Shown here: positions 5,559 to 50,099 of the stretch, in pieces
Layout: the number at the start of each line of letters is the position of its first letter
Numbering within the stretch: position 1 is the stretch's first letter
From: an uncultured Myxococcales bacterium
GTDB taxonomy: Bacteria > Myxococcota_A > UBA9160 > UBA4427
DNA: 50,099 nt
Assembly (NCBI GenBank): GCA_965371385.1
Contig: CBDUYG010000001.1
Span: 1-50,099 of the forward strand
Direction of reading: 5' to 3'
The notes under the pieces: model-generated
Seen by the model: only the letters and a program-made list of their open reading frames with translations
What the model was told of the DNA's origin: nothing
Databases searched by the model: none
Position numbers and translations under genes: made by a program

Positions 5559-6950
5559 CTACGATGATTCGGGGTCTCGATCGTCCAGACCGAGCTTCTC
5601 CAGGCGATATCGGAAGGAGCGGAAGGAAACGCCGAGCAGTGCGGCGGCCCGCTTCTTCACTCCACTCGAGGCTCGCAAGGCCTCACCGAGAAGCGCTCGC
5701 TCGTAGTCGTTGACGAGCTGCTCGAGGTTTACGCCTTCGCTCGGGATCTGGCAGGAGTAGGTCACCTCCGGCGGCCGGAGGATGGTGGCGGGAAGCGAAT
5801 CCGTGGTGATCTCGGGGCCGCGTGAGAGCGCCACGGCCCGCTCGATGATGTTCTCGAGCTCCCGGACGTTGCCGGGGTAGGAGTAGTCCATGAGCTTGGA
5901 CAATGTCTCTTCCGAGACGCTCTCGACCTCCCTGCCCAGCTCCGTGGCCAACTTCTGCACGAAGTGCTTCACCAGCAGGGGTATGTCCTCACGCCTCTCG
6001 GAGAGGGTCGGAAGCGGAATCTGTATCACGTTGAGGCGATAGTACAGGTCTTCCCGGAACCGACCCGCCGCCACTTCCTCCTCGAGGCGTCGGTTGGTGG
6101 CCGACACGATGCGAACGTCCACCTTCATGTCGCTCGTGCCCCCGACTCGCCGGATCGTCTTCTCCTGGATCACACGCAGGAGCTTGACCTGAAGCGGGGC
6201 CGAGAGCTCTCCGACCTCGTCGAGGAAGAGCGTGCCTGCCTCGGCGGTCTGGAAGAGGCCTTCCTTGTTCGATACGGCGCCCGTGAACGCCCCCTTCACG
6301 TGACCAAAGAGCTCCGACTCCATGAGATTCTCGGGGATCGCGCCGCAGTTGACTGCGACGAAGGGCTTGTTTCTTCGCTCGCTCTGGTCGTGGATGGCTC
6401 GTGCGACCAGTTCCTTTCCCGTGCCACTGTCTCCGCTGATCAGGACGTTGGTTCGCGTATCCGCGACCCGACCGATGAGGTCGAAGACGCGCCGCATCGC
6501 ATCGCTCGTCCCGATGATGCTCCGTTGGCGCTGCTGTCCTCGCAGCTCTGTCCGCAGACGTTGATTCTCCCGGGCGAGCAGTGTCTTCTCGAGAGCCTTC
6601 TCTACCACCAGGCGAATCTCGTCCACCTTGAAGGGCTTCGTGATGTAGTCGTACGCGCCCTCCTTCATGGCGGAGATCGCACTATCGGTGCTGGCAAAGG
6701 CCGTGATCATGATTGTGGCGGCGTCTGGACAGTGTTCGCGCACCACTTGGAGCAGATCCAGCCCGGAGCCGTCGGGCATCTGCATGTCGCTGATGACGAG
6801 ATCAAACTCGTCGTTCTCGAGGCAGAGGGTTCCACTGGTAACGTCGCCGGCCGTAATGACGTCGTATCCCTCCCGACGGAAGAAGATCTCCAGGAATTCC
6901 TGCATGCTGCGCTCGTCGTCGACGACCAGAACTCGCGCCTTCGCGCTCAC
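5559..6950 (-). CDS. pilR: Sigma54-dependent response regulator PilR (REC, AAA+, Fis-type HTH)
   Basis: 463 aa. REC domain (VLVVDDE...DLVISDMQMPDG), Walker A GDSGTGKE, ESELFGHVKGAFTGA (GAFTGA loop) and a C-terminal HTH (KKRAAALLGVSFRSFRYRL). 4-nt overlap with the pilS stop. Confidence 0.85.
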   Translation of the reverse strand: MSAKARVLVVDDERSMQEFLEIFFRREGYDVITAGDVTSGTLCLENDEFDLVISDMQMPDGSGLDLLQVVREHCPDAATIMITAFASTDSAISAMKEGAYDYITKPFKVDEIRLVVEKALEKTLLARENQRLRTELRGQQRQRSIIGTSDAMRRVFDLIGRVADTRTNVLISGDSGTGKELVARAIHDQSERRNKPFVAVNCGAIPENLMESELFGHVKGAFTGAVSNKEGLFQTAEAGTLFLDEVGELSAPLQVKLLRVIQEKTIRRVGGTSDMKVDVRIVSATNRRLEEEVAAGRFREDLYYRLNVIQIPLPTLSERREDIPLLVKHFVQKLATELGREVESVSEETLSKLMDYSYPGNVRELENIIERAVALSRGPEITTDSLPATILRPPEVTYSCQIPSEGVNLEQLVNDYERALLGEALRASSGVKKRAAALLGVSFRSFRYRLEKLGLDDRDPESS

Positions 6951-14261: not shown

Positions 14262-15218
14262 TCACTCGACTCCGAGCTTGACCCTCGCATTCTCCACATC
14301 TGCCGCGATCTGTGTCCGCAACGCCTCGACGTCTGGAAACTTCCGCTCCGAGCGCAACCGGTAGCGAAAGCCAAGCTCGACCGAGCGACCGTAGAGGTCG
14401 CCATCGAAGTTCAAGAGATGCGCCTCGGCAAGCAGCTGACCATTTTCGTAGAAGGTCGGCCGAAGCCCTACATTGACCACAGCGGGGTATCGCTCATTCC
14501 GCTCATTCCCGCCACCACCGAGAATCCGCAACTCACCGGCGTAGACGCCCGAATCCGGCAGGATTTCATTCTCGGGGAGGAGGTTGGCAGTGGGAAAGCC
14601 GATCGTGCGCCCCCGTCGAGCGCCGTCGATGATCGTGCCGCGAACGCTGAAGGGGCGTCCGAGCAACTGTTGGGCGGTCTCGACCTCCCCCACCGAGAGC
14701 AGGCTACGAATCCGGGTCGAGTTGACGTCGCGCCCGGAGACCTTCACCTCGGGAATGATCGTCACGGAGAAACCGAGCTGGGGGCCGGTCTCGCTCAGGG
14801 TTCGCATCGAGCCTTCGCGATCGCGTCCGAAATGGAAGTCGTATCCCACAAAGACCTCGACGGGACGGATCCGCTCGTAGACGATGCCGCGCACGAAGCG
14901 CTCGGGCGAGATGCTCGCGAACTCTCGATTGAAGGGCTCGACGATCACGACGTCGACCCCGATCTCCGCGAGAGCCTCGAGCTTCTGCTCGATCGTGGTC
15001 AACAGCCGAGGCGGACTGTCGGGCTGGAGCACTCTGCGAGGATGGGGATCGAAGGTGAGCACAACGGCCTGCCCCTGGCGAATGCGGGCGCGCTCGATGA
15101 CGGTCTCCATGATCGCACGATGGCCGAGATGAACACCGTCGAAGTTGCCAATGGTGAGCACCGGCCTCACGAGGCCCTGGCCCAGAGCTGACGTTCCGCG
15201 AATCGCCTCCAATCTCAT
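14262..15218 (-). CDS. ribF: Bifunctional riboflavin kinase / FMN adenylyltransferase
   Basis: 318 aa. LTIGNFDGVHLGHRAIM, and a C-terminal riboflavin kinase part (GFPTANL...GVYAG...VVNVGLRPTF). The true start may be a few codons downstream of 15218, because the SD AGGAG is only 1 nt from the ATG. Confidence 0.9.
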   Translation of the reverse strand: MRLEAIRGTSALGQGLVRPVLTIGNFDGVHLGHRAIMETVIERARIRQGQAVVLTFDPHPRRVLQPDSPPRLLTTIEQKLEALAEIGVDVVIVEPFNREFASISPERFVRGIVYERIRPVEVFVGYDFHFGRDREGSMRTLSETGPQLGFSVTIIPEVKVSGRDVNSTRIRSLLSVGEVETAQQLLGRPFSVRGTIIDGARRGRTIGFPTANLLPENEILPDSGVYAGELRILGGGGNERNERYPAVVNVGLRPTFYENGQLLAEAHLLNFDGDLYGRSVELGFRYRLRSERKFPDVEALRTQIAADVENARVKLGVE

Positions 15219-15227
15219 ACTCCTGGG

Positions 15228-15306
15228 CTAGCCCGAATTATTCGTGAGCGCTCTGCTGCGGACGGCAATAGCCCTCGCAACGAGCTTCGAGAATAATCCG
15301 GGCTAG
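15228..15306 (+). repeat. MITE/REP-like inverted-repeat element, short (79-nt) form
   Basis: Arms CTAGCCCGAATTATTC (15228-15243) and GAATAATCCGGGCTAG (15291-15306) are 15/16 complementary. 15228-15272 matches the reverse complement of 49859-49903 at 41/45. 15273-15306 matches the reverse complement of 49672-49705 at 29/34. Confidence 0.65.
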
Positions 15307-15310
15307 AGTC

Positions 15311-16396
15311 GTGTCCGTGCGAATTCTCTCGCGTTATTTCGCGCTTCGCTATCTAGGCATGTTCGCGGCGATCCTGACCGCCTCGACGCTCAGCATCATC
15401 ATCGTGGAGATGCTACTCAATCTGGACGACATGCTCCGCGGCGAGAAAGGAACCGCGGGAGCGTTGCAGTACCTCTTCTTGCGGATTCCGAGCTACTACC
15501 TGCGCGAGCTCATGCCGATCACGTCCTTCGCGGCCAGCTTCTTCTCGCTCGGGATTGCCGGCCATCACCTCGAAATACTAGCCGCGAAGACGGCCGGAAT
15601 CTCGACGAGGCGCATCCTGCTCCCCGTCCTCGCTGGGGCGACCCTGCTGGCCCTCGGCTACTTCGTCATCGGCGAAACCTGGATCGTCAGCTCGACGCGG
15701 GAGTGGAATCGGGGCTGGAGCCAGGATCGGCCGGACGTGCACTTCCGTCGTGGCTCGTTCTGGTATCAGCGAGGTCATACTATATACAGCGTTGCGAGCG
15801 CCGACCCAACGACCAACACCCTTCGGGGAGTCCGGCTTTTCGAACTCAACCGGGACGGTCGCCTGCTGCGCAGCATCAGCTCCCAACACGTCGATGTCGA
15901 GCCGAACCATCGCTGGCGCTTCCACGATGTCTCCCTGGTTCGCTTCACGCCCGAAGATCCCCTGGCAGCCCCGATCCCCAGCCGGCTCTCGGAGCTGACC
16001 CTGGATGTGGGTGACCGCGGTGACATCGAATCGATCGACACGGATCTCCAGAGCCTCAGCATGCGAGAGCTTCGAGGCTATATGCGTGATCGCCGGGCCG
16101 AAGGCGAAGCGATCCATCGCGCAGAGACCATCTTCCACACCCGCCTCGCCGACTCCGTCAGTCTGATCCTCTTCGCGCTTCTCGCTGCGCCCTTTGGTCT
16201 CCAGGTCGAGGAGCGACACAGCTTCGGAATACCCGCGCTCTGGGGAATCGCCACCGTCGCGATCTTCTTCACCCTTCGCAGCGTGAGCCTCACCCTCTCG
16301 AGCGAGGGGATCGTCTCGGCGGCCGCGGCGATCTGGTCCTTGATGGCGCTCTTCGCGCTCGTAGGGTGTGCGAGGCTCGTCCACGTACGCGGTTGA
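15311..16396 (+). CDS. LptF/LptG-family (YjgP/YjgQ) LPS export permease
   Basis: 361 aa. N-terminus ILSRYFALRYLGMFAAIL, then three TM helices, a large periplasmic domain and three more TM helices, which is the family architecture. Confidence 0.75.
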   Translation: MSVRILSRYFALRYLGMFAAILTASTLSIIIVEMLLNLDDMLRGEKGTAGALQYLFLRIPSYYLRELMPITSFAASFFSLGIAGHHLEILAAKTAGISTRRILLPVLAGATLLALGYFVIGETWIVSSTREWNRGWSQDRPDVHFRRGSFWYQRGHTIYSVASADPTTNTLRGVRLFELNRDGRLLRSISSQHVDVEPNHRWRFHDVSLVRFTPEDPLAAPIPSRLSELTLDVGDRGDIESIDTDLQSLSMRELRGYMRDRRAEGEAIHRAETIFHTRLADSVSLILFALLAAPFGLQVEERHSFGIPALWGIATVAIFFTLRSVSLTLSSEGIVSAAAAIWSLMALFALVGCARLVHVRG

Positions 16397-48470: not shown

Positions 48471-49604
48471 GTGACGAAGGCCTCCAGGCATTACCGCCGC
48501 GGGGCGGCGTTGATGCTCGCCATCAGCCTCGTCTGTGGGCTCGACGGGGGCCTCGACTTGATCGGGAGTGCACCCGCGCATGCGCACGTTGTGTACGGCA
48601 CGACGACGCTGCGCTTGCTCAGCCTGCAATCCGATCGGGTCGTGCGTGCGCGCATAATCGACGCCGAAAGCGAGATCCTTCTCGCGGATCCCGTCGTGCG
48701 CGAGACGATCGTTGTTGCCGAGGTGCTGGAGACGCTGAAGGGGGAGGCCCCGCACGGGCCCCTGCGCTTCGCGCAACACGGCCACGGCACGCCGAAGTAC
48801 GAGAAGGGTGAGGAAGTCGTGATCTTCCTCCAGCGCATGGAGCGCAACCGCGAGCTTGGGGGTAGCCCGATCGGGGAGCACGTCTCGTGGGTCTCGGTGC
48901 AGGAGGCCGCCGCGAAGTTTCCTCTCGACGACGGGTCGCGCGCCGACTTCAGCGCGGCGCTGCGCTCGTACGCGGCGCTCGAGAAGCTCCCACCGGAGCA
49001 GCAGCCCGACGTCTTGCGCCGAATCACCGTGGACCTCCTCGCTTCCCCGGATCCCAGGCTCGCCTCGTCGACCATTCGGGACGTGGCTCTGATGGGCGGC
49101 GCTGCGATCTTCAGCTCGGAGGACGTCCTCGTCCTCGACCCCCTGCTCGAGACCTCCGACATCTCCATCGGTGTGCGCGTGGGTCTGCTGACGGAGCTCG
49201 AGCGGGCCGGGCTCGTCGAAGGTCCGTCTCGCTGGGCCCGGCTCCTGCGTGAAACGAGCGGCCGCGACCGCTTCACCGTCGTGCGCGCGGTGTCCGCACA
49301 CCCGAGCCCGGCCGTCACCCAGGAGCTGATCGGACTGCTCGCAGACGACGATCCCCTGCTGGTCTCGACTGCCGCAGTGTCGCTGGGTGCGCCGGGAAAC
49401 GATCCCGCCGTCGCGCCGTTGTCGAAGCTTCTTGCTTCCGACCAGGCACGGGTGCGAATGGCGGCGATTCGGGGGCTCGGACGCATCGCGACACCGAGCG
49501 CGCACAAAGCGCTGAAGAAGGCAGCAGCCTCGCACCCCGATCCGGCAACCCGTCGCCGAGCTAGCGCCGAAGTGCAGATCCTCGCCGGGTCGGTGCACCC
49601 GTAG
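48471..49604 (+). CDS. Secreted HEAT-repeat protein
   Basis: 377 aa, GTG start, signal-like N-terminus. C-terminal HEAT/PBS-lyase-type repeats (DPLLVSTAAVSLGAPGNDPAVAPLSKLLASDQARVRMAAIRGLGRIATPSAHKALKKAA). Confidence 0.6.
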   Translation: MTKASRHYRRGAALMLAISLVCGLDGGLDLIGSAPAHAHVVYGTTTLRLLSLQSDRVVRARIIDAESEILLADPVVRETIVVAEVLETLKGEAPHGPLRFAQHGHGTPKYEKGEEVVIFLQRMERNRELGGSPIGEHVSWVSVQEAAAKFPLDDGSRADFSAALRSYAALEKLPPEQQPDVLRRITVDLLASPDPRLASSTIRDVALMGGAAIFSSEDVLVLDPLLETSDISIGVRVGLLTELERAGLVEGPSRWARLLRETSGRDRFTVVRAVSAHPSPAVTQELIGLLADDDPLLVSTAAVSLGAPGNDPAVAPLSKLLASDQARVRMAAIRGLGRIATPSAHKALKKAAASHPDPATRRRASAEVQILAGSVHP

Positions 49605-49671
49605 AAGCGATCTCACAGACCCAGGACCGAAGGCGCCTGCCTCGCGACGGGAGGAGCTCATGAGATGGCTT

Positions 49672-49903
49672 CCAGCCCGCATTATTCGTGAAGCTCGTCG
49701 CGAGGATGGCGAGAGTGCTGGAGTTTCGGGGCCCTCGGAACGAAGTCGACTGCGGGCCAGCTATGCTGGCCAAGCGCAAGCGACGCTTCGCGTCGCCGCG
49801 GAGGCGTACTTTCAGTACGTCGAGGATCGACGCAGTGAGAAGGTCCCGAAAATGCAGTGCTATTGCCGTCCGCAGCAGAGCGCTAACGAATAATGCGGGC
49901 TGA
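49672..49903 (-). repeat. MITE/REP-like inverted-repeat element, long (232-nt) form
   Basis: Perfect 16-bp terminal inverted repeats CAGCCCGCATTATTCG (49673-49688) and CGAATAATGCGGGCTG (49887-49902). Three internal triloop hairpins: GGCCAGC-tat-GCTGGCC (49755-49771), GCGACGC-ttc-GCGTCGC (49780-49796) and CGTACT-ttc-AGTACG (49805-49819). Both ends are homologous to the 79-nt copy at 15228-15306. Confidence 0.65.
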
Positions 49904-49917
49904 CATCGCAGCTCGAG

Positions 49918-50099
49918 CTAGCGCTTCTTCCGCCGCTCCAGAAACGCGCTGACGTATTTGCGGGGCTCGCCGGTGAGCGCGAGGTGAGTGGCCAGCTCCG
50001 GCTCACTCACGAAGAGGTCGGCCATTCCCCGCAGCGCGTAGGCGTTCACCAGCTTCTTGGTGATCCGCACGGAGACGGGACCGTTGGCGCCGATCCGGG
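49918..50099 (-). CDS. Enoyl-CoA hydratase/isomerase (crotonase) family protein, C-terminal part (gene continues past the right edge)
   Basis: Not in the ORF track. Hand translation reads ...RIGANGPVSVRITKKLVNAYALRGMADLFVSEPELATHLALTGEPRKYVSAFLERRKKR*, which matches the usual crotonase C-terminus (AP.A...K......E......EG..AFLEKR). Confidence 0.55.
   Translation of the reverse strand, partial: RIGANGPVSVRITKKLVNAYALRGMADLFVSEPELATHLALTGEPRKYVSAFLERRKKR

Follow-up and report, generated by a model that had tools for sequence, protein, structure and literature searches.

What is the palindromic element of 224 nucleotides (nt) that lies between two convergent genes close to the end of a contig from an uncultured Myxococcales bacterium, and how did it come by its inverted ends, its elaborate fold and a shorter second copy on the same contig? 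The stretch analyzed, called the window here, is one whole contig of 50,099 bp (CBDUYG010000001.1). A preliminary description had taken the element for a MITE (miniature inverted-repeat transposable element) or a relative of the repetitive extragenic palindromic (REP) sequences. Both copies in the window are very probably members of a large, apparently undescribed MITE family with ends of the IS1380-family type. The MITE reading is borne out by the size of the family, target-site duplications, filled and empty sites, and an autonomous IS1380 element with the same ends; the REP-like label does not hold, as the flanking tetranucleotide is duplicated and the ends are of the DDE type. Each trait of a MITE that could be tested was found: the elements are short (71 and 224 nt), contain no conserved reading frame, end in terminal repeats, are flanked by target duplications (in the short copy and the family at large), occur as dispersed copies, share their ends with autonomous elements and are polymorphic. 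No description of the family was found in the literature searched, which is not exhaustive, nor do the terminal 13- and 14-mers appear there in a relevant context.

The boundaries of the element follow from its ends. A repeat search of the window returns a perfect inverted repeat of 17 nt (49673-49689, CAGCCCGCATTATTCGT, against 49886-49902; 100% complementary), and the perfect 16-nt terminal repeat first described lies inside these arms; the outer coordinates 49672 and 49903 each overshot by one base. The element runs from CCCG to CGGG, its canonical ends, and the bases beyond these belong to the flanks: CTAG in the short copy, and in the long copy CAG and CTG, which lengthen the inverted repeat by 3 bp, to 17 nt. 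The true ends of the family read CCCG(N)ATTATTCAYGA ... TCRTGAATAAT(N)CGGG. All four ends in the window correspond to AGCCCGNATTATTCG with at most one mismatch, the degenerate pattern has no other credible match there, and shuffled windows never attained the observed number of end-pattern matches. Only two copies are present in the 50 kb, as judged by blastn with 72 family members and by a covariance model.

The two copies are closely related. The second, at 15228-15306, had been described as inverted and as lacking precisely the 153 nt at 49706-49858, and direct comparison confirms both points. The left-to-right strand of the family (L->R) is the + strand of the window in the long copy and the - strand in the short one. 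Within CCCG...CGGG, 26 of 30 positions agree in one shared arm and 39 of 41 in the other, and this identity of about 92% over the shared 71 nt identifies the short copy as an internal-deletion derivative of a long-type copy. The predicted open reading frames (ORFs) also agree with the location first given for the long copy, between a HEAT-repeat gene and a crotonase-like gene that converge on it.

Beyond the window, the same ends are widespread. A scan of one genome per species with the pattern GCCCGNATTATTC-N32-62-GAATAATNCGGGC, for which about 0.1 match is expected by chance (a hand estimate from the information content of the pattern and the size of the collection), returned 61 loci in about 40 assemblies, with no more than six exact-pattern copies in any assembly. 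According to the record titles, the hosts belong to the Planctomycetota, Nitrospirota, "Deltaproteobacteria"/Myxococcota, Acidobacteriota, Armatimonadota, Bdellovibrionota, Bacteroidota (the isolate Phaeodactylibacter xiamenensis), and Zeta- and Gammaproteobacteria, with a Rokubacteria bin in addition; the family thus spans at least eight phyla. A metagenome scan for the same arms placed 141-201 nt apart yielded at least 120 stretches. The further copies and size classes expected of a MITE therefore exist: hairpin elements with the family ends range from 39 to 230 nt, with interiors of a few nt (39-41-nt "mini" hairpins) to about 200 nt, and some contigs carry 3-5 copies per 6-14 kb according to the covariance model. 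Across 149 ends, conservation is nearly total over GCCCG-N-ATTATTCA-Y-GA and falls to the background level 3 nt outside GCCCG, and in 176 of 206 copies the variable N of one arm is complementary to that of the other. A crude gene call places 67 of the 69 oriented copies between genes. Their orientation is unbiased with respect to both the upstream gene (33 same, 29 opposite) and the downstream gene (27 same, 30 opposite).

The sequences that border the elements are those of duplicated targets. Identical 4-mers flank 95 of 211 copies, including the non-palindromic CTAA, TTAG, CCAG (three times), CTTG and CAAG, and copies flanked by TTAG/TTAG (locus L024) or CTAA/CTAA (L149, L150) lie beyond the reach of the scan pattern. 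Among the 20 copies in which neither flank contains TA, the dinucleotides are directly repeated in seven (shuffle P = 0.003). The CTAG "ends" are target duplications and lie outside the element. The short copy of the window retains an intact CTAG/CTAG pair.

Since 125 of 206 copies are bordered by TA/TA (position -3 is C and position +3 is G), the elements might instead be MITEs of the IS630/Tc1-mariner type, with ends GCCCG...CGGGC inserted at the TA of CTAG and a 2-bp TA duplication. IS630 does prefer the TA in CTAG, and terminal repeats of about 24 bp are enough for ISY100 (PMC2170065). Such an origin is nonetheless very unlikely: the CTAA/CTAA, TTAG/TTAG and CCAG/CCAG flanks fit a duplication of 4 bp and not of 2 bp, a strict TA duplication is not seen, the G...C beside the TA came from the scan pattern, and the sole transposase found with these ends is of the IS1380 family. 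Transposase-bearing IS1380 elements with the same ends and 4-bp repeats speak against the TA/IS630 model.

Filled and empty sites in related genomes are evidence for mobility of the IS1380-type MITEs. At three sites the element is polymorphic, and both junctions are resolved for one of these, a long copy from Nitrospirota (L052:1590-1779) compared with an empty site in L153 whose flanks are 95.8% identical. The empty site reads GAGAC-TCAG-CTCTC and the filled site GAGAC-TTCG-[element]-CTAG-CTCTC, so that the difference is the element plus 4 bp; the target duplication of L052 has mutated since insertion. In Nitrospira sp. RBC100 (L045), an element sits on the tonB stop codon (CCTAG|...), and seven contigs that share one TonB sequence, 98% identical to that of RBC100 (L189-L195), have a single CCTAG at this position. 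Here the left junction alone is clean: to the right of the MITE in the orientation of tonB, at about 5920-6010, L045 has some 88 extra nt (GTCCGCTGAAACACTCGG...CGTTCGTCCTGCG) that are absent from L189-L195 and may stem from another small insertion or belong to a composite event.

A transposase with matching ends had been proposed as the object of a search, and it was found in the IS1380 family. A scan for single ends in a viral-contig collection identified an element in L208 (8575-10196; 1,622 bp) with the structure CTAG|CCCGAATTATTCATGAGG ... GTGAATAATCCCGG|CTAG and one ORF of 468 amino acids, which scores 408 bits against the NCBIfam model NF033539 "IS1380 family transposase" (cut-off 180) and 528 bits against Pfam PF13701. 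Searched with tblastn against plasmids, this transposase matches 697 records, the closest of which are annotated as IS1380 family. The ends in the window, CCCGNATTATTCAYGA, match those of ten or so IS1380-family members, whose repeats begin with CC. The left ends of these insertion sequences include CCCGGAAAATTCATGAAG in Sulfitobacter sp. D7 (flanks CTAA / CTAA), CCGGGAAAATTCATGAGG in ISAzs3 (CTAG / CTAG), CCGGAATTATGCATGAAG in ISAcr4 (CTAT / CTAT), CCGCAATTATGCACGAGG in Skermanella (CTAA / CTAA), CCCGGACAATTTACGAGA in L232 (CTAA / CTAA) and CCTGTATTATTCATAAA in L233 (TTAG / TTAG; right end CCTGTATTATTCACAAA). The L233 element, with ends CCTGTATTATTCA and a GC content of 46%, encodes a transposase only 41% identical to that of L208, and because a deep IS1380 clade has conserved this type of end, the MITE ends of many phyla are alike.

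Direct repeats of 4 bp stand beside six of the insertion-sequence copies as well as beside the MITEs. Direct target repeats of 4-5 bp are a trait of the IS1380 family, and it is the ends together with the length of the duplication that place the elements with this family. Over the left subterminal 27 nt, several MITEs have 85-89% identity with the L208 element at its left end, and what the MITEs and the insertion sequences examined have in common is the terminal repeat and about 10 subterminal nt of the left arm alone. At the left ends of some IS1380-family copies (L227:405-512, and also L225, L228 and L229), the sequence directly inside the left repeat (for example GGCGGGTG) is complementary to that just upstream of the transposase start codon (CACCCGCC-ATG); a hairpin predicted from this complementarity in the 5' untranslated region (UTR) could mask translation initiation.

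Between its ends, the long element has an interior that is in part conserved. As a whole, the element folds as a single long rod, with -139.3 kcal/mol on the + strand (z = -8.5; 0 of 200 shuffles as good) and -121.9 kcal/mol on the - strand (z = -6.9). Three triloop hairpins, two of them with a TTC loop, had been described in this interior and are indeed present (Table 1). The first two are specific to this copy and were not seen in other family members; only the third is conserved across the family, as the tip of an apical hairpin. This central hairpin, cgSagg-CRURNN-loop-NNYAYG-uYgag, is found in 47 of 123 long copies, that of the window included, and its stem covaries (CGTACT/AGTACG, CGTAGC/GCTACG, CGTGCC/GGCACG, CATAGT/ACTATG and CATCCT/AGGATG). 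Nearer the ends is an internal-loop module, the halves of which stand about 22 nt from the left and right ends in many copies. The two halves are always co-oriented, so that they define a strand, and the 2-bp mini-helix of the module covaries. Both copies in the window share this asymmetric architecture with many others, and long copies of the Nitrospira type have two modules in tandem.

Covariation was quantified in 25 distinct Nitrospira-type copies, for which RNAalifold predicts 65 pairs with 97.6% of the cells paired. Both sides have changed in 24 of the 65 pairs, compared with 2-5 in slid controls and 13.5 +/- 1.9 in shuffles, none of which (0 of 500) attains 24. A covariance model over the copies (R1, built from the Nitrospira type), as proposed at the outset, recovers both elements in the window: the long copy at 49672-49903 on the + strand with 56.7 bits (E 2e-10) and no match on the - strand, and the short copy with 52.2 bits on the - strand versus 35.8 on the + strand. 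In 67 of 72 copies the L->R strand gives the more stable fold of the two, with a mean advantage of 11.5 kcal/mol. This asymmetry comes from purine-rich mismatches and loops (A.G + G.G + A.A = 801, C.C + C.T + T.T = 282). Wobble pairs were considered as evidence for RNA and rejected, since the excess of G.U in the RNAalifold pairs is an artefact of predicting one strand: the union of pairs from both strands contains 72 G.U and 62 A.C, and an energy-free alignment of arm against arm gives 251 versus 255. The GC skew of the flanks reveals no replication-strand bias (33 vs 34).

A fold of this stability could mean that the element serves first and foremost as a gene for a structured non-coding RNA or as a cis-regulatory RNA (e.g., a small RNA [sRNA], a 3'-UTR stabilizer or a terminator), in which case the repeats would be its closing stem. 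The z-score on the + strand, the excess of compensatory double changes over both controls, the conserved purine-rich internal loops, the strand-specific model scores (about 225 vs about 54 bits) and the retention of the apical hairpin across lineages all favor such a role. As the primary identity of the element it is nevertheless quite improbable. Conservation stops exactly at the terminal repeats, the core is missing altogether in many copies, presence varies between close relatives, copies carry target duplications, and no Rfam family matches: Rfam 15 gave no match at the gathering score for the window and eight loci, and at E <= 10 only a 14-bit chance match to CRISPR-DR. Neither copy in the window contains a sigma-70-type promoter or an intrinsic-terminator signature, so that the suggestion of a bidirectional terminator finds no site to rest on, and those of an mRNA stabilizer or sRNA are unsupported, the copies having no orientation bias relative to neighboring genes.

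Nor is the element likely to be a gene for a small protein. The ORF of 77 codons at 49660-49893 is open and starts with ATG, but it begins outside the element and is not conserved: among 72 related copies the longest open frame may be on either strand and in any frame, and related copies differ by 1-nt indels; open frames of such length are common in DNA with 64% GC. That it encodes a protein is scarcely credible.

The hairpins could also be REP- or REPIN-like sequences, moved as single-stranded DNA by a REP-associated tyrosine transposase (RAYT; Y1/HUH type), with CTAG as the counterpart of the GTAG of REPs. The mini forms of 39-41 nt, about one per 2-3 kb in some contigs, resemble REPs in this respect, as do the compensatory changes that keep the hairpin paired and the better fold of the L->R strand. 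The outer stem also resembles the Pseudomonas mendocina REP GTAGCCCGGATGCAATCCGGG and the Escherichia coli REP GTAGGCCGGATAAG (PMC2817692). Against this, the duplications are direct and of 4 bp, and the tetranucleotide varies as a duplication does (CTAA, TTAG, CCAG); the same ends occur on elements with a DDE transposase; the unbiased pair counts have no asymmetry between G.T and A.C (251 vs 255; 72 vs 62); and no HUH/Y1 motif was found in stop-to-stop ORFs of at least 100 amino acids at 181 MITE-bearing loci, by regular expression alone, which is a weak test. Movement by a RAYT is, in sum, highly improbable. When compared directly, the P. mendocina and enterobacterial REPs (PMC2817692, Table 1) match CTAGCCCGGATTATTC at 10-11 of 14 positions, a resemblance that is probably coincidental given the target duplication.

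For the favored IS1380-type MITE, a route to the present arrangement can be proposed. An IS1380-family DDE transposase, either acting in trans from another place in the genome or since lost, would recognize the terminal repeats of about 16 nt, CCCG(N)ATTATTCAYGA, and the element would insert at CTAG-like (CTAN/YTAG) tetranucleotides with duplication of 4 bp; we infer such trans-mobilization in the source organism. The short copy would have arisen from a long-type copy by the 153-nt internal deletion and would represent a recent-looking insertion that fills the divergent spacer between ribF and lptF, and the long copy, between two convergent genes, would be older or rearranged.

Several observations weigh against this account. 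The first concerns the long copy itself, which has no intact target-site duplication: its flanks, CCAG and CTGA, are not a direct repeat, so that the duplications anticipated in the preliminary description are present in the short copy and the family at large and are missing here. The same CAG...CTG flanks are seen in L011 and L144, and inverted-complementary flanks are enriched among the copies in which neither flank has TA (7 of 20; P = 0.016); the cause may be decay, recombination of one copy with another, or selection for a longer stem. In relatives at 76% identity, the site of the long copy has another downstream gene and a 29-nt spacer, synteny is broken, and no empty site is found at the nucleotide level. 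The predominance of CTAG is partly a matter of ascertainment, as the scan patterns required G...C beside the ends. Mobility is read from presence, absence and duplications in sequences. The search for an IS1380-family transposase in the window, and in 1.15 Mb that surround about 200 copies, found none, and the autonomous elements whose ends match all stem from other hosts (plasmids of Alphaproteobacteria and unassigned contigs of the viral collection). All-against-all clustering of the flanking ORFs produced generic families only and no element-associated protein, none of the terminal-repeat pairs 300-4000 nt apart encloses an ORF, and the genes between close copies are ordinary.

The remaining objections concern the core. 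The apical hairpin is absent from the IS1380 elements examined, and so is the module apart from a weak subterminal resemblance. With no counterpart in these insertion sequences, the core has an origin that IS1380 parentage does not explain, and covariation as strong as this is not required by a transposition mechanism that uses double-stranded DNA. Maintenance of the fold is clear, and it may operate on RNA, on single-stranded DNA or via repair within extruded palindromes. That the core of the long form (one or two modules and the apical hairpin) is a functional structured nucleic acid riding on the MITE, rather than neutral filler, is a tentative proposal and on balance an unlikely one. If true, the core could be an RNA, for instance a protein-binding or regulatory one that has spread horizontally across at least four phyla, or a single-stranded DNA fold for efficient IS1380 mobilization, and a functional core would be a new feature for the IS1380 family. 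A folded core so well conserved is unusual for a MITE and raises the question of whether IS1380-type mobilization, or the host, makes use of the folded form.

The short copy lies between the divergent genes ribF and lptF. The spacer between the start codons of ribF and lptF measures 92 nt in the window and in L062 (RibF 98% identical), where the short copy fills it, L062 having the same element with one substitution; in two relatives at 75% identity (L064 and L065) it measures 16 nt. The spacer between these divergent genes of essential type has thus gained 75 nt, which illustrates how insertion can remodel very tight junctions. The start codon of ribF is 10 nt away from the duplication. The GTG at 15317, rather than position 15311, is the probable start of the LptF/G-family gene, because the L064 and L065 orthologs read GTG CGG ATC CTA TCG... 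in this region. In a further relative (L063, 88% identity; 125-240), the exact site of the short copy is taken by a 26-nt hairpin, CTAG-CCCGG-TGAAAAGT-CCGGG-CTAG, in which just 5 nt of each terminal repeat, the outermost ones, survive; 87 unrelated nt including CCGCAGTAG come after it. This hairpin may be the footprint of an excision or deletion, or a rearranged copy.

The insertion may have consequences for the two neighbors. In relatives without it, the divergent control regions overlap in the 16-nt spacer. An outward-facing, AT-rich GAATAAT lies 5-6 nt inside each canonical end (CGGG), and in the short copy these motifs face ribF (followed by AGGAG and ATG) and lptF. Judged by position and composition, GAATAAT could serve as a -10 element for both genes. 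ISEcp1 and ISPme1 of the IS1380 family have strong outward promoters, and their right ends can be misrecognized, with capture of adjacent DNA (PMC9330008). An effect of the insertion on ribF and lptF expression is plausible because IS1380 members carry such promoters.

Other variants were recorded in the course of the survey. Two full copies (L150:3986-4181 and L074:8254-8396) have the same ATGATTC variant in both terminal repeats (CCCGCATGATTCATGA ... TCATGAATCATGCGGG) and CTAG/CTAG flanks; co-ordinated change in both arms suggests a matching transposase variant, a constraint on arm pairing or masters with identical ends. Mini hairpins consisting of the terminal repeats and a short loop (39-41 nt) recur every 2-3 kb in eight contigs (L072, L081, L093, L095, L112, L163, L166 and L175), where one hairpin with N=C and one with N=G often stand on either side of some 130 nt that share a ...GACACYGC... 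motif. This arrangement may be an orthologous locus seen in several related strains, or else a composite element. L096:9094-9276 is a 5'-truncated long copy from which the left 30 nt, including the terminal repeat, are gone; its core and right end are intact and it is flanked by CTAG. In the viral collection, about 19 of 24 stretches (about 35% GC) contain an identical 27-mer, TATAGCCCGTATTATTCATGAGCATTT, with no inverted partner (contigs L201-L207, L209-L213, L215 and L218-L224). Despite its likeness to a MITE end, this 27-mer seems to be a conserved sequence of phages with no relation to the element. Three MITE queries against the DNA of the plasmid collection returned chance matches only.

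Table 1. Positions of the two elements, their parts and the adjoining genes in the window.
Feature	Position	Strand	Basis or remark
Long MITE copy within canonical ends (CCCGCATTATTCGTGA ... TAACGAATAATGCGGG)	49676..49899	+	224 nt; inverted repeat, fold, covariance model
Left terminal inverted repeat, long copy (CCCGCATTATTCGTGA)	49676..49691		Matches family consensus and left repeat of L208 element
Right terminal inverted repeat, long copy (reverse complement CCCGCATTATTCGTTA)	49884..49899		
Left flanking 4-mer CCAG, long copy	49672..49675		
Right flanking 4-mer CTGA, long copy	49900..49903		
Interior missing in short copy	49706..49858	+	153 nt; direct comparison of both copies
Internal-loop module, 5' half GTCGCGA	49697..49703	+	Consensus GU-N-[R-C]-GA
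Internal-loop module, 3' half GCAGCAG	49872..49878	+	Consensus GCA-[G-Y]-A-G
Triloop hairpin 1, GGCCAGC-TAT-GCTGGCC	49755-49771	+	
Triloop hairpin 2, GCGACGC-TTC-GCGTCGC	49780-49796	+	
Triloop hairpin 3, CGTACT-TTC-AGTACG	49805-49819	+	
Apical hairpin GGAGG-CGTACT-ttc-AGTACG-TCGAGGATCG	49800..49829	+	Family-conserved; includes triloop hairpin 3
HEAT-repeat gene, upstream of long copy	48471..49604	+	ORF; PF13646 in homologs
Putative crotonase-like C-terminus, convergent with HEAT-repeat gene	stop at 49918	-	
Short MITE copy	15232..15302	-	71 nt; terminal repeats, one internal-loop module and short loop
Left CTAG of 4-bp target-site duplication, short copy	15228..15231		
Right CTAG of 4-bp target-site duplication, short copy	15303..15306		
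ribF (riboflavin kinase/FAD synthetase)	14262..15218	-	ORF; Pfam PF06574/PF01687 in homologs
LptF/LptG-family permease, divergent from ribF	15311..16396	+	ORF

This analysis provides both a name and a parent for a repeat dispersed over metagenome-assembled genomes from many poorly studied phyla, and supplies its exact boundaries and a search pattern, CCCGNATTATTC; the spread over many phyla and the folded core lift the family slightly above the routine. Among known systems, REP/REPIN sequences and their RAYTs likewise combine GC-rich hairpins, a conserved flanking tetranucleotide, high density in some genomes and compensatory change. Whereas a REP includes a fixed GTAG/GTGG, these elements are bordered by a tetranucleotide that is target sequence in duplicate; they end like a DDE insertion sequence, and motif searches by regular expression near about 200 copies found no RAYT. 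The IS1380-family insertion sequences (ISAzs3, ISAcr4 and the L208 element; more distantly ISEcp1 and ISPme1) have the same type of repeat, CC(C/G)G-N-A(T/A)(T/A)ATTCA(Y)GA, the same 4-bp target duplication at CTAN/YTAG and a similar left subterminal region of about 10 nt. Unlike these 1.6-kb elements, those of the window measure 71 and 224 nt and encode no transposase, their arms pair over the whole length, and the module and the apical hairpin are additional.

Correia and ERIC elements are short intergenic hairpin MITEs with full-length and internally deleted classes, and the comparison with them that was drawn at the outset holds as an analogy only. Classical MITEs (Correia/NEMIS, ERIC, RUP and QMITE2) are likewise short, non-coding, intergenic, bounded by terminal repeats and flanked by duplications, form long hairpins, and occur in full-length and internally deleted size classes (PMC10969869). 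IS1380 is not mentioned in that 2024 review of prokaryotic MITEs (PMC10969869). In contrast to the classical MITEs, with which it has no sequence relationship, the present family descends from IS1380, occurs in at least eight phyla instead of one genus or family, and has an interior that covaries and loops that are conserved.

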